From assembly GCF_036971445.1 (NCBI RefSeq), contig NC_091469.1, positions 268,522,001 to 268,586,000 of the forward strand: a stretch of 64,000 bases of DNA. Direction: 5' to 3'. Position numbers and translations under genes: made by a program. Under the pieces are notes generated by a model. That model saw nothing but the letters and a program-made list of their open reading frames with translations. It searched no databases and was not told the origin of the DNA. How positions within the stretch are numbered: the stretch's first letter is position 1; each line of letters starts with the position of its first letter. The DNA comes from Narcine bancroftii. Lineage: Eukaryota. Positions 6,370 through 30,725 of this stretch are shown here, one piece after another.

Positions 6370-9300
6370 TTTAAAAAGTATTTAGGGGAGGGAGAGTGGT
6401 TTTTATTTACTAGAAGGGGAGTGATATTTTGTAGTAAGTGACTACATTGTTAGTTTGTAAAGATGCCTAGTTTGAAATTTGCAACTTTTAATGTTCAGAG
6501 GTTGAATAATCCGATTAAGTGAAAGTGAGTTTTGGCTTATATTAAGAAAATGAAAATTGATATTGCTTTTTTACAAGAAAGAAGCACATCTGACTGAAAA
6601 AGAACACTTGAAATTGAAGAGAGGTTGTGTTGGGCATGTGTTTTTTTCTTCATTAAATTCTAAGGCAAGGGGTGTAGTAATTCTAATTCATAAGAATTTG
6701 TCTTTTGAGTTGCATACTATGGAAGGAAATGCTGGAAGGGTTTTAAAGGTGAATTGTAAATTTTTTTACTGAATTTTGGACTTTGCTTAATATTTATGCA
6801 TCTAATGTGGGTGCTGAGTGTTTTAGTTTGGATGCTTTTTTGTTATTAGATAAAGCAAATTAAAATATTTTAGTTGGAGAAGATTTTAATTGTGTCTTGG
6901 ATCCTTTGTTGGACAGATCCCCAAAAAGTATAAAGAAATCAAAGATGGCGATACAAATTGAGGCCTTGATGAAGGATTTAAATTTAGTGGATATTTGGAG
7001 AAGGGTTAATCCTGCAGAGAAGGACTTCTCTTTTTATTCATCTCGACATGATTCATTTTCTAGAATAGATTTTTTAGTATCGGCACATTTACAAGGAAGG
7101 GTATCACAGGCAGAATATAAAAGCAGGGTTATATCAGATTCTTTAATTTTTTTCTTATGTAAGTTCAGAAGTGGTACGTTTAATACAATGTTGTTGAAAA
7201 AAACAGTTTGTTATTTTTGTTAAAGAACAGATTACAATTTTTTAATGAAAATGCTAATTCAGTAATAAGTGATTTTGTGTTATGGGACACGTTAAAAGCT
7301 TATTTAAGAGGGCAGATTATTAGTTATACCACTAAAGTTAAGAAACAGTATATGGTTGAAAGCTTTGAATTACAAAAGAAAATTGACGAATTGGAGAAGG
7401 AATTTCAGAAGGAAGTGACAGAAGATTAAAAAAGTGGCTTTGACTAAATTGAAATTACGTTATAATACGTTGCAGACATCAATTTGAATGTTTAATTAAT
7501 TGACCTAAGCAGCAATATTATGAGTTGGGTGAGAGGGCACATAAAGTACTTGCATGGCAGTTAAAGAAGGAACAGGCTTCATGGGTTATTAATGCTGTAA
7601 AAAAGAATTCAACAGTTACCTCTAAACCTCAGGAAGTTAATGACCAGTTCTATTCATTTTATAAAAAAATATATACTTCTGAGGGGAAATAGGATAATGG
7701 TTCTATTGATTCCTTTTTATCTAAGTTAACGTTATTAGCATTAGAAGAGGAGGATGTTATGGATTTTGAAGCTCCGTTTACAGAATTAGAGATTAAGGAG
7801 GCTATGTTGGAAATGCCCAATGGAAAGTCACCAGGTGATGATGGGTTTTCGGTGGAATTTTATAAAACTTTTTATGAAGATTTTTCTTCAGTGTTCGGGG
7901 AGGTATTACAACAAGTGACTGAACATTATGAGTTACCAGAATCTTGTTCTAGTGCTTTAATTACTTTAATCCCAAAAAAGATAGAGACACGTTGAAAAGT
8001 GTCTTCATATAGACCTATTTCTTTATTGAATGTTGATTATAAAATAATAGCAAAAATGCTAGCAAATCGACTTGCTGAGTACTTACCTAAATTGATGCAT
8101 ATTGATCAAACAGGTTTTATTAAAAATAGAAATGCTTCAAATAATATTCTTCGATTGACAAGTTTGGTCAATGCATATCGACAGCAGCCCAACCACCCAA
8201 TGGTGGTTGCGATTGATGTGAGTCGAATGGGATTTTAAAAAAATTTAAAGTACTGGAGAAGTTTAAATTTGGCCCTTTTTTATTGGTTGGGTTAAAGCTT
8301 TATATACAAACCCAACTGCTAGGGTGGTAACAAATGGTCAAGTTTCATCATTGTTTAAATTGACACATTCAACTCGACAAGGTTGTCCATTGTCACCAGC
8401 CTGTTTGCATTGGCTATTGAACTGTTAGCTCAAACAATAAGGCAGAATGAACAGATAAGAGGGATGAGGGTTATGGATGAAGAGTATAAGATTAATTTGT
8501 TTGCAGATGATGTTTTGATATATTTAACAAACCCAGAACGATCATTGCCACATTTACAGGAATGTTTATTACATTATGGAACATTATCTGGATATAAAGT
8601 TAATTGAGATAAAAGTGAAATTTTACCAATTGGAGAAGCAGGTTATTCAGAGTATAAAAATATTATAAAATTGAAATGGTTTGATAAAATTAAATATTTA
8701 GGAATAATTATAAACACTGAGTATCAATCTTTATATAAATTAAATTATGTTCCATTATTGAAAAAGATTAAAGCAGATCTAATTAAGTGGAAAGATCTTC
8801 CATTAACTTTAATTGGTCAAGTTAATTGTATTAAGATGAATATTTTTCCTTGTATTCAATATTTATCAATACCAATATCATGTCAATATCAATACCATGT
8901 TCTCTTACAGAGTTTCTTTCAGGATTTAAATAAAGTTATGAGAGAATTTTTATGGAAATGTAAATTACCACAGGTAGCATTAAATAAACTCACTTGGAAG
9001 TATGTGTTAGGTGGGCTTCAATTACCTAATTTTCAGAATTATTATGAAGCAGCCTAAGTTGAAATTTATTAGTAGATTGATGGATTTGGACCACCTCCAA
9101 GTTGGGCTAAAGTTGAGATGGCCTCTATTCTTGAAGTTGAGGTGTATCAATTTCTATTTTGATGAAATGTAAATTTGTTGAGGGAATATAATATGCCGAT
9201 ATTAAAACATTTATTAAAATTATGGATTAAAAAAAAGATTTTAGGATCAAAAGGTAAATTGTCAATTTTAACTCCATTATATAATAATCAACTTATTTCT

Positions 9301-9576
9301 TTTTCAATGTTTAATAGTCATTTAAAGAGTTGGGATTTTAAGGGTATAAAAACATTACAGGATTGTTTTGTAGAAGATCAGTTTCTTTCTTTTACTCAAT
9401 TGAAAGAGCATTTTGATATTGCTGAAAATTCTTTATTTGTTTATTATCAACTTCAATCTTTGGTGAAAAATATGTATGGTGGAGAGATGATTTTTACCTG
9501 TATTGACAGAATTCGAGTCTTTGATTTCTTCTATACCAAAAAGGGGTTATATTTCTGTTATGTATCATGTATTTGT

Positions 9577-10081
9577 CGATGCTGTCACGGTGGCCAGTGG
9601 AGAGCTCGACAGCATCGAGTCCACGCTGCTGAAGATCCAGCTGCGCTGGATGGGTCACGTCTCCAGAATGGAGGACCATCGCCTTCCCAAGATCGTATTA
9701 TATGGCGAGCTCTCCACTGGCCACCGTGACAGAGGTGCACCAAAGAAAAGGTACAAGGACTGCCTAAAGAAATCTCTTGGTGCCTGCCACATTGACCACC
9801 GCCAGTGGGCTGATAACGCCTCAAACCGTGCATCTTGGCGCCTCACAGTTTGGCGGGCAGCAGCCTCCTTTGAAGAAGACCGCAGAGCCCACCTCACTGA
9901 CAAAAGGCAAAGGAGGAAAAACCCAACACCCAACCCCAACCAACCAATTTTCCCTTGCAACCGCTGCAATCGTGTCTGCCTGTCCCGCATCGGACTGGTC
10001 AGCCACAAACGAGCCTGCAGCTGACGTGGACTTTTTACCCCCTCCATAAATCTTCGTCCGCGAAGCCAAGCCAAAGAAAGA
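9577..10081 (+). mobile_element. RTE-clade LINE 3' fragment with rearranged 5' junction
   Basis: QLRWMGHVSRMEDHRLPK..CNRCNRVCLSRIGLVSHKRACS*, GCCAAGCCAAAGAAAG tail, 13-bp TSD atcatgtatttgt at 9564-9576 and 10082-10094. Confidence 0.92.
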
Positions 10082-10091
10082 ATCATGTATT

Positions 10092-10798
10092 TGTAATGGA
10101 GGATTTAAACTAGCTTATGAAAGAAGGGATGCAGTTGCATCAGAAGACATAATCTCAATTCCACTATGAGGCCCAGGATGCATATTTAGTAGACACACCT
10201 AAATTCCACCATGGGGCCCACGGATGCAGTTAAATAGGAAGACATTATCTAAATTTACACTATGGGGCCCAGGGATGCATATGAATCAGTAGACATTATC
10301 CAACTTCCACCATGAGGCCAAGAGATGCAGTTGTCTTTTGTTGGTCGCAGACTGTCAGGAGACCTTGAAGATAATTAAATCATTTGTTCAAAGAGATAAG
10401 ATCTGAAGTAAACAACTTTTGGGTAATATAAGCCATGATCCCACTGCTGAAGTTTGAGACTCTCCAAGAGGTGGCAACATCTCTCAGCAAGAAGAACTTC
10501 AAGATTCCAAACCAACATCCCGGTCCAGGGAGGTGGAGAAGCTGCTACCGGCGCCCCGACAACCTACTACAAGTGTGCAGTCATCGCCTCGCTTTGGCAG
10601 TTGGGACCAGTCCAGGCATTGATAAGTATAATTGGGAAGGGCTTGCATATTGTAGTGTGAATTCAGCTTTAGATTTAGTAATAAAGACTTGTATAAACTG
10701 AACTGCTCTCAGTGTGTGTGTCTATTTTCTTTCGGTAGCTTGAACACTGTGACCAATCTAAAATGAACAAAGTGAGAGGTACAAGTTTACCCAAGATA
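10092..10798 (+). repeat. 5' LTR of the ERV (U3 with about 50-bp imperfect tandem repeats, TATA at 10427, AATAAA at 10680)
   Basis: Begins TGTAATGG and ends 2 nt before the PBS; the terminal dinucleotide reads TA rather than CA. Confidence 0.8.
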
Positions 10799-10800
10799 AT

Positions 10801-10818
10801 TGGCGTAGTCGGCAGGAT
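10801..10818 (+). promoter_or_regulatory. Primer binding site, tRNA-Ser
   Basis: TGGCGTAGTCGGCAGGAT is the exact complement of the vertebrate tRNA-Ser 3' end (ATCCTGCCGACTACG-CCA). Confidence 0.92.
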
Positions 10819-10829
10819 TGGTCTCAAGA

Positions 10830-12622
10830 TGTTTCGCCGAAAGAAGGAGGTGAACCCTGATTCCGGGATGGACTTCCAAAGACAATGGGGTTGGCATGTT
10901 GGCCAATACCCTGTCTTTGTTGGGACCACCCCTCAGTTGGGATGAGAAGTTAGATCCATCAAGTGCGCCTCTGGGAGAGCGGGTTGCCGCTCTCCTTCGA
11001 GAAAGTAAATTTCCTGTTAAAAAGGGGACGCTGATGGACGGTTTTTGGCTGCTGGCCACAGCCTTATGCCACTCTGTTCAGCGTGAAACAGAATTAGTTC
11101 AGTGAGAAGTAGAATCTCAGCGTAAGAGAGAGCAACTAGAGGAGGAGGTAGAAGCCCTGCGACAACGCTGTTCCATGATGAGTAAGATTGTTTGAACCAG
11201 TCAGGACCGAGCCAAAGAATGGGAGGATAAGCATGTCCAAACTATCTGCCGTAATATTAAACTCTGGCAGCAGCTCTGTGCAGATAAAGAAAGGCATGGA
11301 GTAGAACCCGATCCATATCGTATACGTGCCATGATAAGGAATGGCGACGATCCTGATGTAATTGATGAATGGGACGGGAATATCTGGAAAGATGTCCATG
11401 GTAATAATGCAGATACTCCTCAGCATGTGCCTAACATACTACCCTCTCCACCTGCTGTTCACGCCCGCCCCATAAGGCAGCAGACTTCCCAAACAGACAA
11501 AAGGGGCGATGATGTAAGGGAAGAGATTGAAGGGATAGATACCCCGATCTCCCAAGAGGACCCAGGGGAAAATACCCAAACCCCTGCTTATGCTCAATGG
11601 CCCACCCCCTCTACGGGATGGCCTAGGCCTTGTCCCGTCCACTGGGCAAAGGACCCTGTGGGCCAAAGTGGGAGCAGGGGTCAAGAGCAGTCAATGATCC
11701 GTGACTTCTCTGTAAAAGAGCTGGCTGCCATTGGAGATCGATTTAGGCAAAAGGCAGGAGAAACTCTGGAGGCCTGGCTCCTGCATGTTTGGGAGCAAGG
11801 AGGGGGTAATGTATATTTAACCCCTGAGGAATCGTTGGATTAGGAACAATGACTACTGATATCCGGGTCACTGCTGAGCTGCGGGGTAGAGGAAGAGAGG
11901 TGGATTACTTACTTGCCACTCTTGGGGATGCCCTGCTACGAGTATACCCATCACCAGTAGATTGGGATTTACATTTACAGAACAATTGGAGATCCCCAGA
12001 GGAGGGTATAGCAGTAATTCGTCAGCAGGCCCTGGCCTCTGCCTTGTATGCAGGGCGTTTGAGGCTGTGGGTACGTGGGGGGAGCCCTGATGAAGAGATA
12101 TTCACAGCCGGAATGCATACCAGATTGGTTTGTTCTGCCTAACCCACTGTACAGGGACTGGTTCTGTCCGTAACTAGTCCGCTAATTGGACACCCTGTGT
12201 CCTAGGCGGTGCACGCCTTATCTGGGCTTAGAGAATTAGAGTTGGGAGGTAATATCCACTCATGTACAACCCAGGTTAAATCAGACAAGCAGGATGAAAG
12301 GAGAGGGGCTGCTGTTAATAATGGACCTACAAGAAAGGACCTTTTTCTAACCTTGTTAAAGTTAGGCGTACCTAAAAGCGATATTGATGGGAAACCTACC
12401 GCAGTCCTTTATGCCCTTTATAAGAGAAAAGCAGGGGAACATCATCCCCAGCTGCTGAGTCCTCCTGGCCCAGCTGTGCCTTCTGCTCCCACTGCTGCTC
12501 CCACTGAGCCAGCTTCTCTTGCTCCAGTTATCCGTGATGAGATACAACAAATGGTTAAAAAGGCTCTTATGGATAATAGTGGCATGTGGGCCTGGAAGCC
12601 CTCGAACCCTACTAAAGCATGA
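10830..12622 (+). pseudogene. gag: ERV gag, disrupted
   Basis: ATG just after the PBS; CA-like FRQKAGETLEAWLLHVWEQGG; IDGKPTAVLYALY motif of ERV-L/S gag; several stops and frameshifts. Confidence 0.75.
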
Positions 12623-14125
12623 GGGTGTAGGCAGGGCCCCCGTGTCTACTCCATTGAGATACGGCGGATACACGGGGACCCACGGCCCTACATACCATTA
12701 ATAGTCCATTGGGGTGGGGATAATGACCCCCAATATTTGGCCTTGGTCGATACCGGTGCGGAGCACTCGGTGATTCCAGGTAACCCTGACCTCTGGACTG
12801 GACCAACATTTCGAATAGAGGGGATGGGAGGAGCGATCACCCTGGCGAAGGAAATAAAAGTCTGCGCCACGGTGGGTGATGGCCCTTCCCCTATATGGTT
12901 ACATGCCTTGGTGGCTGCCACTGACGAGTGTATCCTGGGTATTAATATGTTGGCCGGTACGGCCCTTAATACTAACCAAGGGAGATTTGCATTTGGAATT
13001 CGGACTATTACTAAAAGACTAGTGGTGAGTTGGGCTAAGTGGGACCCTGTGATGGTGCCTCCCCCCCAAAACCAGTGTGCATTCCATAATATCGCCTCCC
13101 TGGGGGGCAGGAAGAGATTACTGCCACCATCGATGCTCTGCAAGAAGAAGGGGTAGTGAAGCCCACAACGTCACCCTTTAATAGCCCTGTTTGGCCGGTT
13201 CAGAAGCCGGACGGCTCCTGGAGAATGACAGTTGACTATCGTTTTTTGAACAAACATGCCCCACCACTTGCTTTGGCAATTCCGGACATTGTTACCCTTA
13301 TTGAAAACATTGCTACTGGGAACTCAGGAACATGGTATGCTGTCATTGATCTCGCTAATGCCTTCTTCAGTATTCTTATAGATGAGGTCTCACAGGATCA
13401 GTTCGCCTTTACCTGGAAGGGGCGCCAGTATACCTTCACCCGCCTCCCTCAGGACTATGTACACTCTCCCACTATTTGCCACAGCCTAATTGCCCGTGAT
13501 TTGGAGGCGGTGCCAGTATCACCTTCCCTCTCAATTCACCATTATATTGATAATGTGATGATCCAAGGGGCCACAGAAGAGATGGTACAGGAAGGTATGG
13601 AGAGTGTCCAAGATACCCTGATGCAAAGAGGGTGGGCCATTAACCCCGCCAAGGTACAGGGCCCGTCCCAGACAGTTATCTTCCTTGGAATTCAGTGGCG
13701 TGCTGGAGAACAGGTGGTTCCCGATAAAGTTCGCAATAAGATCGCAGTCTTGGCCACTCCTACTAACAAAAAAGAGACCCAGCATTTCCTGGGGTTATTG
13801 GGATACTGGTGATGCCATATTCCACACTTGGCATTGCTTTTACGTCCTCTATATAAGGTTACCCGAAAGAAAACAGACTTTGTATGGGGTGGCGATCAAG
13901 AAAGGGCGTTCCAGTCTGCCAAGCAGGCTATTCTTCAGGCCCTGCTCCCCGCATCCCAGATACCCCCTACGAACTACAGGTCTCCGATACTGATGATATG
14001 GCATCCTGGAGCCTCTGGCAGAAACAAGAGGGCCGCCGAGTCCCACTGGGATTCTGGTCACGTACCATGCCTGAGGCTGCCACTCGTCATTCTGCTTTTG
14101 AACAACAGTTACTAGCCTGCTACTG
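12623..14125 (+). pseudogene. pol: ERV pro-pol (protease, RT, start of RNase H), disrupted and truncated
   Basis: DPRPYI..ALVDTGA in frame with gag. The RT catalytic motif reads YIDN. There is no integrase or env. Confidence 0.88.
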
Positions 14126-14361
14126 GCATCTCTTGACCTCATGGTGGAAGTTGGATAATGTCTACTGATTCATATGCATCCCTGGGCCCCATAGTGTCAA
14201 TTTAGATAATGTCTTCCTATTCAACTGCATCCTGGGCCCCATGGAGGAATTTAGGTGTGTCTACTAAATATGCATTCTGGGCCTGATAGTGGAATTGAGA
14301 TTATGTCTTCTGATGCAACTGCATCCCTTCTTTCATAAGCTCGTCTAAATCCTCCATTACA
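14126..14361 (-). repeat. Inverted copy of LTR U3 5' end (10092-10328)
   Basis: The reverse complement aligns over about 236 bp with about 9 differences by manual count. Confidence 0.95.
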
Positions 14362-15033
14362 GTATTACAAGACAATATGGATAAGTCGGAATGGGAGAAA
14401 TCTAAGCTTAAATAGGAAAATGATATAGCTTTTGTTTTTCCTGAAGATTATTGGGTAGATATGTGTCATGACAGTGTTACTAAAATGACAAATGTACGGT
14501 ATGGAATGGTTAATTATAACTTTTTACATCAATTGTATTTAACACCACAGAAATTGAAAAAATATGGTTTTAGTAATTCGGATTCTTGTTTTAGATGTGT
14601 ATGTACTGGAACTTTTTTACATGCTGTCTGGTCTTGTATGTATGTACAACCATTCTGGGATGAAATTAAGTTAATTTTGGAAAAATTATATAATTTTAAG
14701 TTACCATTAGATCCATCTATTTTTTTTAATGGGTTATATGATTCCTTTAAGGGAATTAGGGTTGGATAAATTTCAAATTACATTTATATATTTAGCATTG
14801 TCTGTAGCTCGAAAATGTGTAGCAAGTACATGGAAAGGTAATATAGTGATTAATATAATGCAATGGCATAATGAATTGAAAGCTTGTATTGTTATGGGAA
14901 AAAATTACACATAATATACATGACAATTATTCTTTTTTTGTTAATAAGTGGTTATCATATTTGGAATATAGGCATTTAGATATATTTTGATTTATTATAT
15001 ACTTTTAGTTTCTGTTTATATATTTTTATCTCT

Positions 15034-15826
15034 TGTCGGACTCTGTCTTTACCCTACCCTCAATTTAGTCTATGTGTCGTTTGAGTCCAGCGTGCTCGGT
15101 GAATGAAGTAATAGGAGAAGGTATTCGGTTTAACAATCACAGCACAAAAATAAAGCTTAACAGAGCTCAGGTTCAGTCGTTAGTTCATAGGTCACCTGCA
15201 CAGTGAGCTATTCCCCAAGACTGACTCCTACTGTCCAGTCTCTTCTGTTTATATAGATCAACATTATTACACTGAACAAAAGTTGGCTTTCTTTGCTAGA
15301 TTCCTTGCATAAGATTTATCTCAAGCAATTTCCTGCTCTGCAGTTATCTAGGGTGTAGACCTCCCATCTTAATCCTCAAGGCCAGAACATCCTGTTGTCT
15401 TGATCAGAAATCAATTCTTACCCCATATATTTTTAATTATTTCTTTGTACTCATCTGGCCATAGCCTTCTGTTCTACTCAACACCTCCTTATGCCTTCCT
15501 ACTGAATTGGTTTATACATTTTCTTTGTCTCCGACTTTCTCAGTCATGGTACTCTTTGTTCTCGTTTGGCCATAGTCTTCTGTTCTACTCAACACCTCCT
15601 CAAGTCTTAGCATTCCTCCTAGATTGGTTCATACATTTTCTCTCTTTTGTGTTTGGAGACAGCAAATTCTGCACGTACTATACTCTGCCAACTTTGCTAC
15701 ATACTGTGGCTGTTACTTAATTGCTTGAAGTAAATAGTAAATTGTTACATAGTACTGGATTAATGAATACATAATGAATAGTACATAGGCATATTTTCTA
15801 TGATTACTTAACCCTTGGTTCCAACA
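15034..15826 (-). mobile_element. Solo LTR (ERV1-like) in the L1 3' UTR
   Basis: Minus strand TGTTGG...CCGACA, 4-bp TSD CTCT; homologous to 16468-17495. Confidence 0.85.
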
Positions 15827-16467: not shown

Positions 16468-17495
16468 TGTTGGAATCTAGGGGTGAAAACATTATGAAAT
16501 AAATGATTAATTAATAAGTGTATATTTACTGCATGGTTCAGGGGAAAAGAGGAATGTGATTAAGTGGCAATCACAGCATGGAGCAAAGTTGGCTGAGCAA
16601 AATTGTCTGCTCCAAAATTGTTCTTTGGCTTGGCTTCGCGGACAAAGATTTATGGAGGGGGTAAAAAGTCCACGTCAGCTGCAGGCTCGTTTGTGGCTGA
16701 CAAGTCCGATGCGGGACAGGCAGACACGATTGCAGCGGTTGCAGGGGAAAATTGGTTGGTTGGGGTTAGGTGTTGGGTTTTTCCTCCTTTGCCTTTTGTC
16801 AGTGAGGTGGGCTCTGCGGTCTTCTCCAAAATACAGGGAGAGGAAATGCATAAAACGATTTAGGAGGAATGCTCAAACTAAAGGAGGTGGTGAGTAGCAC
16901 AGGAGACACAGGCCAGATCAGAACAAAGAATGGCCTGCAAGAAACAAAGGGAATGGAAAACCAGTCTAGGAGGAAGATTAAGGCAGGAGGAGGTGTTAAA
17001 GAGAACAGCAGAAATTGGCCAGACAAGAACAGAATGGTGATTAGAAATATCTGGGGATGAATTAATTTCTGATCAACACAACAGCTTAGTCTGGCCTGGA
17101 GGATTAAGATGGGAGTGCTACACCCCAGATATCTGCAAAACAGGAGATGACTGGTGATAACCCTTATGCAAAAAGATCTAGCAAAGGAAGACAACTTTTG
17201 TTCTGTATGATAATGAAATCTAGCAAAGGAAGCCAACTTTTGTTCTGTATGATAAGGTTGATCTATATAAACTGAGCCAACTGGACAATAGGGGTCAGTC
17301 TTGGGGAGTAGCTCACTGTGCAGGTGACCTATGAACTAATGACTGACCCAGAGCTCTGTTAAGTTTTATTCTTGTGCTGTGTAATAAACTGACTGTTGAA
17401 CCGAATACCTTCTCCTATCACTTCATTCAAAGAACACGCTGGACTCAGACTACACATAGACTAAATTAAGAGTAAGGTAAAGCCAGAGTCCGACA
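16468..17495 (+). mobile_element. Solo LTR (ERV1-like) containing an RTE fragment
   Basis: TGTTGG...CCGACA, TATA near 17265, AATAAA near 17383, 4-bp TSD CTAC. Confidence 0.85.
16619..16826 (-). mobile_element. RTE 3' fragment
   Basis: Near-identical to the other RTE 3' ends; flanked by a ctccaaaat duplication. Confidence 0.88.
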
Positions 17496-24000: not shown

Positions 24001-27000
24001 TTTTTTTATCTGCCAATTCTCTTCTTTTAGTTGTGTCTTCCTTCATTGCTAATTCTTTTTCTATATTTACTATTTACCTTTCCAACTGCTCTGTTTCCTG
24101 ATTGTAGTTTTTCTTCATCTTGGTTACATAGCTTATTATTTGCCCTCTGATGAACACTTTATAAGACAACATTTCTAAAATATCAAACATTTCCCTTATT
24201 CTCCTATCTAAAATTTCTTTAACCCCATTCTCCCCTCCCCCTCCTAAGTTGCCCTTTATCCTTTGTCGGGCAACCACATCTCCCCTCTCCATTTGGATTT
24301 GCGAATTCACTCGCAAGCGTCATTTGATTTTGCAGTGACCGTAACTTCCCCCCACCCAGACCCCCCGGAAAAGATTTCAATTTTCATATATAACAAAGGT
24401 CACTCTTTTAATTCCCTCCTTACTTCCTCTCTTCCCTTTCATTCCCTTATTTATTCTTATATATACTCTATATATTTTCATCTAAATACGTTTACACTCA
24501 TGTACACACATATATACCTACACATCTATATATATATATATATATAATATGTTCTTTGGCTTGGCTTCGCGGACGAAGATTTATGGAGGGGGTAAAAAGT
24601 CCACGTCAGCTGCAGGCTCGTTTGTGGCTGACAAGTCCGATGCGGGACAGGCAGACACGATTGCAGCGGTTGCAGGGGAAAATTGGTTGGTTGGGGTTGG
24701 GTGTTGGGTTTTTCCTCCTTTGCCTTTTGTCAGTGAGGTGGGCTCTGCGGTCTTCTTCAAAGGAGGTTGCTGCCCGCCAAACTGTGAGGCGCCAAGATGC
24801 ACGGTTTGAGGCGTTATCAGCCCACTGGCGGTGGTCAATGTGGCAGGCACCAAGAGATTTCTTTAGGCAGTCCTTGTACATTTTCTTTGGTGCAGCTCTG
24901 TCACGGTGGCCAGTGGAGAGCTCGCCATATAACACGATCTTGGGAAGGCGATGGTCCTCCATTCTGGAGACGTGACCCATCCAGCGCAGCTGGATCTTCA
25001 GCAGCGTGGACTCGATGCTGTCGACCTCTGCCATCTCAAGTACTTCGACGTTAGGGATGTAAGCGCTCCAATGGATGTTGAGGATGGAGCGGAGACAACG
25101 CTGGTGGAAGCGTTCTAGGAGCTGTAGGTGGTGCCGGTGGAGGACCCATGATTTGGAGCCGAACAGGAGTGTGGGTATGACAACGGCTCTGTATACGCTT
25201 ATCTTTGTGAGGTTTTTCAGTTGGTTGTTTTTCCAGACTCTTTTGTGTAGTCTTCCAAAGGCGCTATTTGCCTTGGCGAGTCTGTTGTCTATCTCATTGT
25301 CGATCCTTGCATCTGATGAAATGGTGCAGCCGAGATAGGTAAACTGGTTGACCGTTTTGAGTTTTGTGTGCCCGATGGAGATGTGGGGGGGCTGGTAGTC
25401 ATGGTGGGGAGCTGGCTGATGGAGGACTTCAGTTTTCTTCAGGCTGACTTCCAGGCCAAACTACAGGGGAATCACGTTGCTCTCCATTGCAGGCAAAATC
25501 TTTGCTAGGATTCTACTAAATAGAATAATACCTAGTGTCGCCGAGAATATTCTCCCAGAATCACAGTGCGGCTTTCGCGCAAACAGAGGAACTACTGACA
25601 TGGTCTTTGCCCTCAGACAGCTCCAAGAAAAGTGCAGAGAACAAAACAAAGGACTCTACATCACCTTTGTTGACCTCACCAAAGCCTTCGACACCGTGAG
25701 CAGGAAAGGGCTTTGGCAAATACTAGAGTGCATCGGATGTCCCCCAAAGTTCCTCAACATGATTATCCAACTGCACGAAAACCAACAAGGTCGGGTCAGA
25801 TACAGCAATGAGCTCTCTGAACCCTTCTCCATTAACAATGGCGTGAAGCAAGGCTGTGTTCTCGCACCAACCCTCTTTTCAATCTTCTTCAGCATGATGC
25901 TGAACCAAGCCATGAAAGACCCCAACAATGAAGACGCTGTTTACATCCGGTACCGCACGGATGGCAGTCTCTTCAATCTGAGGCGCCTGCAAGCTCACAC
26001 CAAGACACAAGAGAAACTTGTCCATGAACTACTCTTTGCAGACGATGCCGCTTTAGTTGCCCATTCAGAGCCAGCTCTTCAGCGCTTGACGTCCTGCTTT
26101 GCGGAAACTGCCAAAATATATATATATATATATATACCCATATACACACATACATATAGTTCGTGGTCATTTTTACTCTCGTTACATGTCTTCATCTCTG
26201 CCTGTTTTGTAGTTGTTCTGCAAATTTTCGTGCTTCCTCCGGATCCGAGAATAGTCTGTTTTGCTGCCCTGGAATAACTATTTTATGTACCGCTGGGTAC
26301 TTCAACATAAATTTATATCCTTTTTTTCCATAGGATCGTTTTTGCTGTATAAAACTCCTTTCTCTTCTTCAGGAGTTCAAAACTTATGTCTGGATAAAAA
26401 AAAAATTTTGACCTTTGTATTCCAGTGGCTTTTTGTCTTCTCTTATTTTCTTCATTGCTTTCTCCAATATATTTTCTCTTGTTGTATATCTTAAGAATTT
26501 TACTAAAATGGATCTTGGTTTTTGGTGCGGCTGTGGTTTCGGGGCTAATGTTCTATGTGCCCTTTCTATTTCCATTTCTTCCTGTAATTCTGGTTTTCCT
26601 AGGACCCTGGGGATCCAATCTTTTATAAATTCTCTCATATTCTTGCCTTCTTCATCTTCCTTAAGGCCCACTATCTTTATATTATTTCTTCTATTATAGT
26701 TTTCCATTATATCGATCTTCTGAGCTAACAGCTCTTGTGCCTCTTTAACTTTTTTATTAGATTCTTCTAATTTCTCTTTTAAGTCCTCTATTTCCATTTC
26801 TACGATTGTTTCTCATTCTTCCACATTGTTCACTCTTTTTCCTATATCTGACACGACCATCTCTATTTTATTCATTTTTTTCTTCTGCACTTTTAATTCT
26901 TCTTTTTATTTCATTAAATTCTTGTAATTGCCATTCTTTTACTGATTCCATATATTCTTTAAAAAAAAATATCCATTGTCTTGCCTTTCCCTTCTTCTTC

Positions 27001-27537: not shown

Positions 27538-28263
27538 ACATGTCCAATAAATTTTTCTGTATAAATATAGAACCGTGAGACACTAGGCAGATCCCTTGTC
27601 ATGGGATTAGCTGTAGGCACTAGTGCCTACTCCCCCCCCCACCCCTTTGGGAACTAAAGGTGTAGGTTTTCTCCATCCAGCTCCTATTGGAACATCCTTG
27701 AATTTAGCATTTTGGAAAATGAAAACAATGTATCAACAATCTATAAAATAATATAAGCACGATTTACAAATGTATCATCTCTGAATTTTTTTTTAAAGTA
27801 CAAATGCTAGAAATCTAAAATTTAAAGAAAAAGTTGGAAGTGGTGAACAGGGGTAGGTCACACCTGTGGGAAGAGAAGCAGAATATTTCAAACTGAGAAG
27901 ACCCTTCATCAGAACGGGGAAGAAGGAGAGGAATGAAGTTTGATGGCTGTTGCTGGGCGTAAAACTGGGGTTTACTGACGAAGGCGCTACTAATGGCAAC
28001 ATTGACTTAGAGTTAGCTACACTAACCCAGGCTGCCGTCGACTAACAGGAAATGGTGTGTGTGGGGCCACCAGTGTCTGTTGCAATCCCATTAACTCCAC
28101 CGATGCAGCAACTTTCAGGGCGCACTTGGGGTGGGGGAGCCGTCCGAGCAGTGAAACAACCCCCCCCCCCCCCCCCCCGGAGTGGTTGGAAGCTCACTGT
28201 CGCTCAGGGTGGGCGTTGGCCCGGCCGCGACTGGGGAGCGTGGCTGCGCGGCGCAGTGCGTCG

Positions 28264-28279
28264 TTCCCGAAAGTGAAAG
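28264..28279 (+). promoter_or_regulatory. Overlapping GAS-like (TTCCCGAAA) and ISRE/IRF-E (GAAAGTGAAAG) motif
   Basis: Matches TTNCNNNAA and GAAANNGAAA, about 70 bp upstream of the first ATG. Confidence 0.6.
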
Positions 28280-28345
28280 GACACAGGCTGTGCCGGAGCG
28301 ACCAAGGCTTCAACCGAGGGAAAGGGAGCTGGGGGTGGGGGGGCA

Positions 28346-28421
28346 ATGGTGGGCACCGGGAAGCCGATGCTGCGCCTCGTCCTGGGGATGGTCGCGCTCC
28401 TCGCTCTGCCCCGACTTTCAG
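28346..28421 (+). CDS. NCR3LG1: B7-H6-like gene, exon 1: signal peptide
   Basis: MVGTGKPMLRLVLGMVALLALPRLS (alternative ATG at 28367), donor CAG|GTAAGA, phase 1, compatible with the V exon. Confidence 0.72.
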
Positions 28422-28791
28422 GTAAGATGCGTGGCGAGAGCCGGCAGACGGACGGCGCTGGAGCGGCCCTGGCCGCGACTTCCAGGCACAATGAAGGCCA
28501 AGTGAATCCACCAGTTAATGGCTTTAACGATTAATCACCGGTTTCATAATTGTATCGAAGTCGTGTGGGTTGTTACTGCGCCCTGAGGCTCTTTGACTGG
28601 AAACTGGTTCCGACGTGGGAGTGGTGATTGGACCCCCCTCCCCCCACCTTCCCCAGAACGTACGCGATACATTGCGAACAATTGCAATTACTCCAGCAGT
28701 AGCAGAAACTGATACAACGAGGTGTTTTGGGGTGGTGGGGGTCCAACCACTACTCCCACGTCGGAACCACGTTTCCAGGTTCCCACAGGTG

Positions 28792-30725
28792 TGTGAGAAA
28801 CAGAAGTACCTTCACAGAATTTGCTTGAGACAAAAATTGAGAACAAAGAACTTTTATTCTACTATTACAACAATGCAAAGTTGGGTGCTTACCCTGGGAA
28901 TACACACAGATACTGAGGCTGACCCAACTTTTATACATTTCATTTCAGTCCAGAGATACCTTCCCCCTAACATTCTTCTGCCTCCTGGATTGGTTTAGCA
29001 TTAGGTAATTCTGCCCACGTGGATTCTAACTTCTTATCAGTTTATGTGCCTTCCTGCAAACTTGTTAGCCAGGAAATATCATGTCTTTGTTCTTGACTCA
29101 TTAATCAATCCTCAAGACTTGCTAAAGCTATTTACTTGCTATCCTGTTTTGAAGATCCTTATTTTATTATACTTTTATAACCCTTCCTCCCATTCCAGCA
29201 TCCCTTCACCCTGATTTAACCCATAATTCTTTTTCTTTGGCTTGGCTTCGCGGACGAAGATTTATGGAGGGGGTAAAAGTCCACGTCAGCTGCAGGCTCG
29301 ATTGTGGCTGACAAGTCCGATGCGGGACAGGCAGACACGGTTGCAGCGGTTGCAGGGGAAAATTGGTGGGTTGGGGTTGGGTGTTGGGTTTTTCCTCCTT
29401 TGTCTTTTGTCAGTGAGGTGGGCTCTGCGGTCTTCTTCAAAGGAGGTTGCTGCCCGCCGAACTGTGAGGCGCCAAGATGCACGGTTGGAGGCGATATCAG
29501 CCCACTGGCGGTGGTCAATGTGGCAGGCACCAAGAGATTTCTTTAGGCAGTCCTTGTACCTCTTCTTTGGTGCACCTCTGTCATGGTGGCCAGTGGAGAG
29601 CTCGCCGTATAATACGATCTTGGGAAGGCGATGGTCCTCCATTCTAGAGACGTGACCCTCCCAGCGCAGCTGGATCTTCAGCAGCGTGGACTCGATGCTG
29701 TCGGCCAATGCCATCTCGAGTACTTCGATGTTAGGGATGAAGGCGCTCCAATGAATGTTGAGGATGGAGCGGAGACAACGCTGGTGGAAGCGTTCTAGGA
29801 GCCGTAGGTGATGCCGGTAGAGGACCCATGATTCGGAGCCGAACAGGAGTGTGGGTATGACAACGGCTCTGTATACGCTTATCTTTGTGAGGTTTTTCAG
29901 TTGGTTGTTTTTCCAGACTCTTTTGGTAGTCTTCCAAAGGCGCTATTTGCCTTGGCGAGTCTGTTGTCTATCTCATTGTCGATCCTTGCATCTGATGAAA
30001 TGGTGCAGCCGAGATAGGTAAACTGGTTGACCGTTTTGAGTTTTGTGTGCCCGATGGAGATGTGGGGGGGCTGGTAGTCATGGTGGGGAGCTGGCTGATG
30101 GAGGACCTCAGTTTTCTTCAGGCTGACTTCCAGGCCAAACATTTTGGCAGTTTCCGCAAAACAGGACGTCAAGCGCTGAAGAGCTGGCTCTGAATGGGCA
30201 ACTAAAGCGGCATCGTCTGCAAAGAGTAGTTCACGGACAAGTTTCTCTTGTGTCTTGGTGTGAGCTTGCAGGCGCCTCAGATTGAAGAGACTGCCATCCG
30301 TGCGGTACCGGATGTAAACAGCGTCTTCATTGTTGAGGTCTTTCATGGCTTGGTTCAGCATCATGCTGAAGAAGATTGTAAAGAGGGTTGGTGCGAGAAC
30401 ACAGCCTTGCTTCACGCCATTGTTAATGGAGAAGGGTTCAGAGAGCTCATTGCTGTATCTGACCCGACCTTGTTGGTTTTCGTGCAGTTGGATAACCATG
30501 TTGAGGAACTTTGGGGGGCATCCGAGGCGCTCTAGTATTTGCCAAAGCCCTTTCCTGCTCACGGTGTTGAAGGCTTTGGTGAGGTCAACAAAGGTGATGT
30601 AGAGTCCTTTGTTTTGTTCTCTGCTGACTCCTCCCATTCCAGCATCCCTTCACCCTGATTTAACCCATAATACTTCATCCTTAATTAGCACTTGCTTGAC
30701 TCCTCACATTCCAGTATCCCTTACA
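28792..30725 (-). mobile_element. Solo LTR, antisense in intron 1, interrupted by an RTE
   Basis: Minus strand TGTAAG...CTCACA, 4-bp TSD GGTG, minus-strand TATA near 28933 and AATAAA near 28855. Confidence 0.7.
29228..30624 (-). mobile_element. RTE LINE, 5'-truncated, young
   Basis: RT ORF 29897-30637 and C-terminal ORF 29286-29714; nearly identical to 24549-26115. Confidence 0.93.

Follow-up and report, generated by a model that had tools for sequence, protein, structure and literature searches.

Organization of the element and its insertion site

The 64-kb stretch of Narcine bancroftii DNA analysed here (the window) carries an endogenous retrovirus (ERV) at 10092-14361, which runs in the order LTR-PBS-gag-pro-RT, breaks off before RNase H and integrase, and then continues into an inverted copy of the start of U3. 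The features at the locus are listed below, with coordinates and strand.

6463..9573, +: left part of the host L1-type LINE ORF2, decayed, the target of the insertion; endonuclease/RT-like ORF fragments that resemble other L1 copies in the window; start read from the sequence
9564..9576, +: left-hand copy of the RTE's 13-bp duplication, comprising host bases, GTATT and the first 3 bases of the LTR (longest common string)
9577..10081, +: 5'-truncated LINE of 505 bp, which we take to be of the RTE-type family, its 5' end carrying two short pieces in inverted orientation; inserted later than the provirus
10087..10091, +: left target-site duplication (TSD), GTATT
10092..10798, +: 5' LTR of 707 bp, with a TGT start, a TATA-like box at 10627 and, ahead of a GT-rich stretch, AATAAA at 10680
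10092..10328, +: left arm, U3 bases 1-237, which hold a tandem array of about 51 bp in 4.2 copies (10125-10332)
10801..10819, +: primer-binding site (PBS), presumably of the serine-tRNA type
10829..12622, +: decayed gag (tblastn with P0007), with a PSAP motif and premature stops at 11103, 11193, 12140 and 12203
12623..14126, +: pro-RT-connection, cut before RNase H and integrase (Pfam RVP, RVT_1 and RT_RNaseH_2)
14122..14126, +: internal junction, at the end of the U3 tandem array
14126..14361, -: right arm, inverted U3 bases 1-237 with an intact U3 att end, and without TATA, R, poly(A) signal or PPT
14362..14366, +: right TSD, GTATT
14367..14900, +: right part of the host L1 ORF2, resuming in phase; weak zf-RVT match (E 0.0043, under the family cut-off)

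The arms (10092-10328 and 14126-14361) are inverted copies that align over 237 columns with 96.2% identity (E 9e-108), the right-hand copy being 236 bp long, much as an initial annotation of this DNA had read them. Between them there are 8 substitutions and 1 indel, none of which falls in the terminal 16 bp (16/16 identical). Both termini of the element are intact U3 att ends facing host DNA; the right terminus is U3-type at every base and, compared base by base, is unlike the U5 end of the 5' LTR. On the bottom strand, the element reads as U3 bases 1-237 in plus sense, followed by RT-gag-PBS-U5-R-U3 in minus sense. This departs from the canonical provirus, which has two direct LTRs, a U3 end on the left, a U5 end on the right, and a PPT before the 3' LTR: inside the junction there are no purine runs of at least 11 nt, and the right side holds only the inverted partial U3. 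Without 3' R, PPT and integrase, the element has no means of spreading in the normal way. The window holds no second copy. The structure with two U3 ends is real, and the element looks like a real but dead one-off.

The U5 end, placed in register 2 nt before the PBS, terminates in TA and not CA, as had been pointed out, and lacks the att motif of class III elements (motifs tabulated in PMC3601003, Table 3). This non-canonical end is real and is at most a candidate cause. Downstream, gag has a frameshift near 11820-11845 and ends at a stop that is in frame with pro, while pro-RT has a stop at 13810, frameshifts near 13065-13090 and 13895-13955, and an RT catalytic motif that is not intact. Pol homology stops at the W of LLACYW, which bears out the proposed break at EQQLLACYW, and nothing in the 64 kb matches the RNase H/integrase parts of the related proteins P0039 and P0007; neither these comparisons nor Pfam domains revealed integrase sequence in the element or elsewhere in the window. 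The premature stops number 5, against 2.2-3.1 expected at the rate of the arms (P 0.08-0.20), and the coding region appears to decay neutrally. The only Rfam match was a U6 copy that lies far from the element.

At the internal junction, the homology amounts to 1 nt of exact overlap, or to 4 nt (ACTG) with a 1-nt offset, for which the chance is about 1.1%; the actg/gcatc microhomology described initially is present as a short homology, but it is smaller than was stated. The junction lies at U3 base 237 and not at an att end. No hairpin marking a pause or acceptor site was supported, all five folds having z-scores between -1.1 and +1.6. In the inversion product of autointegration, an att end is joined to internal viral DNA. 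That origin was rejected, as the internal junction is not an att end and both att ends face the host.

The GTATT duplication (10087-10091 and 14362-14366) holds up, the chance of identical 5-mers at two fixed places being 0.15% at window composition and 0.34% at that of the L1 flanks. Its size is the 5 bp stated for ERV-L (PMC8278194), in line with the class III TSD proposed at the outset. The host L1 is colinear across the insertion to 0-1 nt in two of the four L1 copies used as rulers, the other two being inconsistent (64 vs 97; 7 vs -30), and no sizeable loss of host DNA is seen at the site. The L1 frame, described as seamless, does keep its phase; however, it meets a stop 16 codons after it resumes, and the 505-bp RTE must also be removed to restore it. 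The arm tip has no homology to the host bases preceding the duplication. Despite a likeness between the target and the LTR tips, capture by host microhomology was rejected, because both tips are complete, as are both copies of GTATT.

Copies of the RTE near 24552 and 29222 match it at 98.5 and 95.9% identity, respectively. Its 13-bp duplication spans the host/LTR junction and produces a third GTATT at 9569-9573, a feature missed by the initial annotation. Because the RTE duplicated the left host/LTR junction, it offers independent support for that junction; the inverted piece that the RTE itself carries at its 5' end does not account for the TG within 9564..9576. The reverse order, with the provirus inserting after the RTE, was rejected, as it requires two duplications that end on the same base and a chance TG. 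Divergence between the arms exceeds that between the RTE and the sibling nearest to it (P 0.027), although its other sibling shows 16/474 differences.

Relatives, class and age

The nearest named relative, P0039 of N. bancroftii, shares 90% amino-acid identity with the element over 225 in-frame residues and is sister to its RT (support 100/98) in a tree of 20 hand-picked sequences from 127 RT matches, built without labelled class references. Both P0039 and P0007 (Hemitrygon akajei) run past the break through RNase H and integrase, for 416 and 527 further residues, whereas the element has neither domain. P0039 keeps the normal RT-RNase H-IN arrangement, so the loss belongs to this copy, or its lineage, alone. 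A search for RTs of similar length gave 7 matches among 545 candidates (53-60% identity), none with a chimeric tail, and no close sibling besides P0039. Among RTs of solved structure, the best matches were foamy-type PR-RT chains (113 bits; we take 7kse to be such a chain), slightly above MLV-type (105 bits) and well above HIV (47 bits). The relatives of the element have YIDD and a dUTPase after IN, both of which are ERV-L traits (PMC8278194). The element itself has a gag stop in frame with pro-pol, a DTG protease, a PSAP-type late domain and the 5-bp TSD GTATT. Judged by these sequence features, it appears to derive from a batoid class III (ERV-L/ERV-S-like) ERV. Its Ser-type PBS is presumably like that of XtERV-S. 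In XtERV-S, the Ser PBS is 19 nt long (PMC8278194).

The divergence of the arms is 3.4% (95% CI 1.5-6.7%), which overlaps the 4.6-5.2% implied for the element against P0039. The end branch of its RT is 0.077 changes per residue, compared to 0.014 for P0039, and converts to about 3.5% per base, against about 1.7% per arm. This clock, and with it the number of premature stops, leans mildly toward arms that are younger than the insertion; the difference could stem from CpG decay in pol or from conversion between the arms.

Origin of the two U3 ends

The best reading of the locus, and one already put forward in the initial annotation, is that integrase joined two U3 att ends in a single event, because the termini are U3-type to the last base, 5 bp are duplicated, and no sizeable host sequence is lost. 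We consider such an event quite probable. As to how a molecule with two U3 ends arose, we favor, with a probability of roughly 0.55, a one-off dead class III provirus formed by one aberrant jump of reverse transcriptase and a normal integrase insertion by two U3 ends. Plus-strand DNA, whose start by nature coincides exactly with the U3 end, would have come free once about 237 nt had been made, where the U3 tandem array ends; a few bases at its 3' end would have paired with the RT-connection region of sense genomic RNA, and it would have been extended, as if it were a minus strand, up to the PBS. The second packaged genome would probably have supplied a normal plus-strand strong-stop DNA, which could then pair via the PBS, and completion of both strands would give a blunt 4.27-kb duplex with U3 at each end, which integrase already in the particle could insert concertedly into the L1. 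In a mirror version, counted within the same probability, an elongating plus strand would jump onto spare strong-stop DNA and give the same product. Neutral decay, and then the RTE insertion across the left junction, would have followed.

The internal junction, with its short homology and its position away from any att end, is what a polymerase jump would be expected to leave, and the template-switched cDNA that had been listed among the possible routes is plausible and can be made specific in this manner. Parts of the process are described for HIV-1, in which plus-strand DNA can be released prematurely (PMC12657518), strong-stop DNA of one genome can complete a deleted second genome, and two sequenced proviruses contain inversions (PMC9278108). 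The literature search found no paper with the exact jump proposed, and the accessible portions of PMC11624286 and PMC7166211 hold no precedent for it. Points against the jump are the mild lean of the clock, the 1 nt of exact overlap, the lack of a pause hairpin, and the two inconsistent L1 rulers.

Two viral DNAs may also each have given a U3 end to one integrase complex, after which the two free inner ends would have been resected and sealed through microhomology-mediated end joining; here too, a single integrase event uses two U3 ends. Two-donor concerted integration occurs in vitro; our literature search returned no paper stating this. Such donors predict the same termini and TSD, the short, imperfect junction homology suits end joining, and a U5 end without a canonical att motif could have favored the pairing of U3 ends. 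However, two DNAs per complex would be needed and, on each side, probably several kb of resection that left 237 bp of one of them, and the divergence of the arms is no greater than age explains. Moreover, a TA-ended plant LTR element is described as inserted with a 5-bp TSD (PMC4600303), so the TA end need not block integration. We regard two donors as unlikely, although a single locus cannot separate this route from the jump. A later template switch by the host, which was absent from the routes first listed, would start from a normal provirus: replication or repair would switch in pol onto the opposite U3 strand, copy to the LTR tip, and return exactly at the tip of the former 3' LTR, with the loss of RNase H, IN and that LTR but not of the original TSD. 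Internal decay that somewhat exceeds arm divergence fits this course, as do the imperfect 8-nt inverted register shared by the U3 and U5 termini, a possible guide for the return, and the template-switch scars that adjoin the element in the 5' end of the RTE. Yet the return must fall within the last 1-3 bases on both templates, all discriminating bases are U3-type, and the copy does not continue into the left flank; the RTE insertion is also a poor trigger, given the greater divergence of the arms noted above. A host switch is thus rather improbable.

The remaining explanations carry less weight. In half-site integration, integrase would insert the U3 end only, U5 being a poor substrate, and a host polymerase would trim the other end, copy U3 and join it to the chromosome. 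A pathway of this kind, in which short homology also lets a truncated end be extended by a copy of either viral strand, is described (PMC5041404, Discussion), and the U5 end here is non-canonical; but ends joined by the host usually have long duplications or deletions and not 5 bp (PMC5041404), so that an intact att end with exactly 5 bp duplicated, at an arm tip without homology to the pre-duplication host bases, would be a matter of luck, and we find this course hard to credit. The initial annotation had also suggested a propagating, non-autonomous derivative with terminal inverted repeats (TIRs), moved as DNA by integrase in trans in the manner of Ginger elements. The TGT...ACA termini and the 236-bp inverted arms, which fall inside the 40-270 bp range of Ginger1 (PMC2836005), agree with this proposal, but the window holds one copy, without transposase or integrase, PPT or 3' R and with an apparently neutrally decaying coding region, the nearest relative has a normal Pol, and excision by such integrases is called unknown (PMC2836005, Discussion). 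Furthermore, no protein match carries the chimeric junction: all 13 junction-peptide matches continue as normal Pol, and among 108 representative matches, 103 end at or before query residue 62 and the other 5 are weak (41-61% identity), although this is a weak test, since decayed copies are rarely annotated, and P0039's 14 cluster members lie outside the comparison. The proposal is therefore very unlikely, and there is only a slight chance that the element belongs to an ERV-derived TIR family moved by retroviral integrase in trans, as a step from LTR retroelement to Ginger-like DNA transposon. An assembly artefact, either a fold-back chimera or a collapsed repeat, could be imagined in a region so rich in repeats. 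It is scarcely credible, because the arms differ by 8 substitutions while young repeats in the window differ far less (6/472 between RTE copies; 1/85 in a tandem array), and beyond a 5-bp duplication the same L1 continues in phase, which a fold-back would not produce.

Comparison with known systems and implications

The element shares with class III ERVs of the XtERV-S/ERV-L type an LTR of about 705 bp (707 bp here) with a TGT start, a gag stop in frame with pro-pol, the PSAP and DTG motifs, and a 5-bp TSD, but it lacks a direct 3' LTR, PPT, RNase H, integrase, dUTPase and env, and its right end is an inverted U3 fragment (PMC8278194). Defective HIV-1 proviruses likewise have lost much of their 3' side while keeping the 5' LTR intact, and show short-homology jumps and occasional inversions; asymmetric LTRs and premature plus-strand transfer are described for them; their deletions, on the other hand, extend into a direct 3' LTR or their inversions are unspecified, and the accessible text describes no inverted U3 as a second integrated end (PMC9278108; PMC12657518). 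Half-site integrations of ASLV and HIV-1 resemble the element in having one good end and one truncated end, with viral sequence of either strand appended through short homology, whereas their second junction is made by the host, usually with large duplications or deletions, in place of the intact att end and 5-bp duplication found here (PMC5041404). Ginger1 and Ginger2 have TGT...ACA termini and TIRs of similar length (PMC2836005), and the arms of 236-237 bp starting with TGTAA fall within the Ginger definition of 40-270 bp and TGTNR termini. The Gypsy-integrase-like DDE transposase of Ginger elements is found neither in the element nor in the window, and the Ginger TSD is 4 bp (CCGG/CCGT in Ginger1, AT-rich in Ginger2; 5 bp only in Tdd-4/5), in contrast to the 5-bp GTATT (PMC2836005). 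The internal sequence, unlike that of Ginger, is gag-pro-RT, and one copy lies in the window. Membership in Ginger was rejected on transposase and TSD size.

If the reading of a single two-U3 event is true, the locus is a germ-line record of a clean concerted retroviral insertion with two U3 ends and no U5 end. No published example of this architecture was found in the open-access literature, from which most older virology papers are missing; individual inverted proviruses of relevance to novelty may appear in the supplements of PMC9278108 and PMC5041404. The locus would also show how an LTR element could become, in one step, a unit with TIRs and one TSD, a conversion for which the chain of events has been called unclear and two separate insertions have been suggested (PMC2836005). 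The same jump, landing downstream of integrase, would be expected to yield inverted repeats around the integrase gene; here it removed integrase, so this copy is a dead end. A read-through transcript of the element would carry antisense U3 and, speculatively, might silence sibling copies. LTR finders expect direct repeats. As one curated survey also discarded opposite-facing LTR pairs (PMC4600303), units with two U3 ends are easy to miss, and their frequency is a cheap and testable question.

Inverted U3 arms at an L1 target

In a self-comparison of the 64-kb window, the opening 237 bases of the element (10092-14361) reappear inverted at 14126-14361 with 96.2% identity (E 9e-108), bearing out the inverted copy of the LTR start (about 236 bp, about 96%) proposed in the initial annotation; apart from its own tandem units, the element has no other match in the window. 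Eight substitutions and 1 indel separate the arms, whose divergence is 3.4% (CI 1.5-6.7%) and whose outermost 16 bases are identical. The left U3 carries 4.2 copies of a 51-bp unit at 10125-10332, probably an enhancer array; practically all of it is included in the inverted arm, where the promoter is absent. The GTATT duplication described around the element is likewise found at both flanks (chance at fixed positions, 0.15-0.34%). The empty host site, TGTATTACA (window 10083-10095, 14355-14369), resembles the LTR tips, so that each junction appears as a short tandem repeat; this likeness is probably due to chance.

The insertion target is a decayed L1 whose left-side frame continues in phase on the right, as had been noted from the sequence. 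With four other L1 copies in the window serving as rulers, the gaps are 9 vs. 9 and 5 vs. 4 bases in two, and inconsistent in the remaining two (64 vs. 97; 7 vs. -30). A 5'-truncated LINE fragment, labeled here as RTE (9577-10081), abuts the left end of the element. Because its 13-bp duplication takes in the first three LTR bases, the RTE inserted after the provirus, and thereby kept the host/LTR junction in duplicate. Elsewhere in the window, four further RTE copies show candidate duplications of 6, 9, and 43 bp and one TA run. An assembly artefact is unlikely, since only 6/472 and 1/85 bases separate young repeats within the window, and since a fold-back would not pick L1 up again.

Anatomy and relatives

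Between the arms lie the remainder of the 707-bp LTR, the PBS, gag, protease, RT, and part of the connection domain:

5' LTR, 707 bp, with a TATA-like box at 10627 and AATAAA at 10680
PBS at 10801, presumably of the serine type

Pol homology ends at LLACYW, and the element encodes no integrase. The batoid ERV Pol proteins P0039 (Narcine bancroftii) and P0007 (Hemitrygon akajei) run on through RNase H and integrase; these parts have no match anywhere in the 64-kb window. This copy is dead: its 1051 codons contain 5 premature stops, there are 3 frameshift zones, and the RT motif has lost its integrity.

An RT fragment search returned 202 longer relatives among 1008 candidates. The closest, P0039, has 23 differences over 225 in-frame residues, and is sister to the window RT (support 100/98) in a tree of that RT and 20 matches hand-picked from 127 listed. 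A ray is accordingly the probable host. Among solved structures, a foamy-type RT ranks on top, by a narrow lead only. According to PMC8278194, XtERV-S/ERV-L share with the element the LTR length, in-frame gag stop, PSAP, DTG, and 5-bp TSD. The element is probably of class III ERV origin, and its architecture is not that of a canonical provirus.

Origin of the two U3 ends

The right terminus is U3-type through its final base and the duplication is of integrase-typical length, which makes one concerted integrase insertion with two U3 ends the best umbrella reading (probability roughly three in four). The same product could arise from two donor DNAs followed by end joining; two-donor integration is known in vitro, but we regard this route as unlikely here. 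A later host template switch is slightly less probable still, as on both templates its return would have to hit the final 1-3 bases, although the clock offers it some support. The 3.4% arm divergence is compatible with the 4.6-5.2% to P0039, yet the RT branch is 0.077 for the element vs. 0.014 for P0039, and the 5 premature stops are a modest excess over the 2.2-3.1 expected (P 0.08-0.20). Half-site integrations completed by the host usually leave long duplications or deletions, according to PMC5041404.

As to how an integrase substrate with two U3 ends may have been made, the bottom strand begins exactly at the plus-strand synthesis start, reaches the end of the U3 tandem array after 237 bases, and then enters antisense pol. 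We lean slightly toward a single plus-strand jump to genomic RNA, followed by PBS pairing. Plus-strand DNA would be released prematurely and jump once onto genomic RNA, and ordinary PBS pairing with normal strong-stop DNA would then yield a clean duplex with U3 at each end. In HIV-1, the accessible text of two reports describes premature plus-strand release (PMC12657518) and cross-genome completion (PMC9278108), without the inversion seen here. The actg/gcatc microhomology claimed at the junction is present, but smaller than described: a single base overlaps exactly, or 4 match if a 1-base offset is allowed (chance of the latter ~1.1%). Folding on either side of the jump gave no special structure. 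Judged against Table 3 of PMC3601003, no class III att motif is present at the U5 end; this end may have favored a U3/U3 substrate, or may instead reflect decay after insertion. A plant LTR element ending in TA integrated normally, according to PMC4600303.

Probable single insertion and neighboring features

In a junction-spanning peptide search, 13/13 matches go on as normal Pol and none is chimeric. Nearly all matches in the full profile search (103/108) stop at or before query residue 62, the other 5 being weak, and a near-length RT search (7 matches) gave no additional close sibling. As decayed copies are seldom annotated, these searches are weak evidence. Since R, a poly(A) signal, and a PPT are all missing from the right arm, the unit cannot be remade by canonical reverse transcription, nor does it code for an integrase. 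This anatomy weighs more strongly against a propagating family than do the protein searches. The element is most likely a single dead insertion, and membership in a mobile family is highly improbable. Ginger elements, DNA transposons with a Gypsy-integrase-like transposase, are alike in termini and arm length (PMC2836005), but the element differs from them in transposase and TSD. No provirus with U3 at both extremities, facing inward, and a single TSD was found described in the consulted parts of the open-access literature, a body without older subscription papers. The structure is real, and is apparently a new form in an established class, that of aberrant proviruses.

Two short stretches from the interior of the RTE fragment (~11 and ~30 bp; window 9576-9617, 9703-9732) recur in inverted orientation at its 5' end, a template-switch scar. 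Another RTE copy (24552-26117), with TA runs on its flanks, has its 5' part inverted relative to a sibling (29231-30624) at a near-precise breakpoint; this looks like twin priming, which is better known from L1. An unusually long 43-bp target duplication (29185-29227 and 30629-30671) also flanks an RTE copy. A solo LTR of an unrelated family (15034-15826, TGT...ACA) has a 4-bp CTCT duplication and an inverted relative, 74% identical, at 16838-17495. A CpG-rich island (28000-28480) includes a first exon that reads like a signal peptide (28367-28421) and has a splice donor after it, probably a host gene start ~14 kb downstream of the provirus. A full-length U6 snRNA match (100 bits) lies at 62369-62475 on the minus strand.
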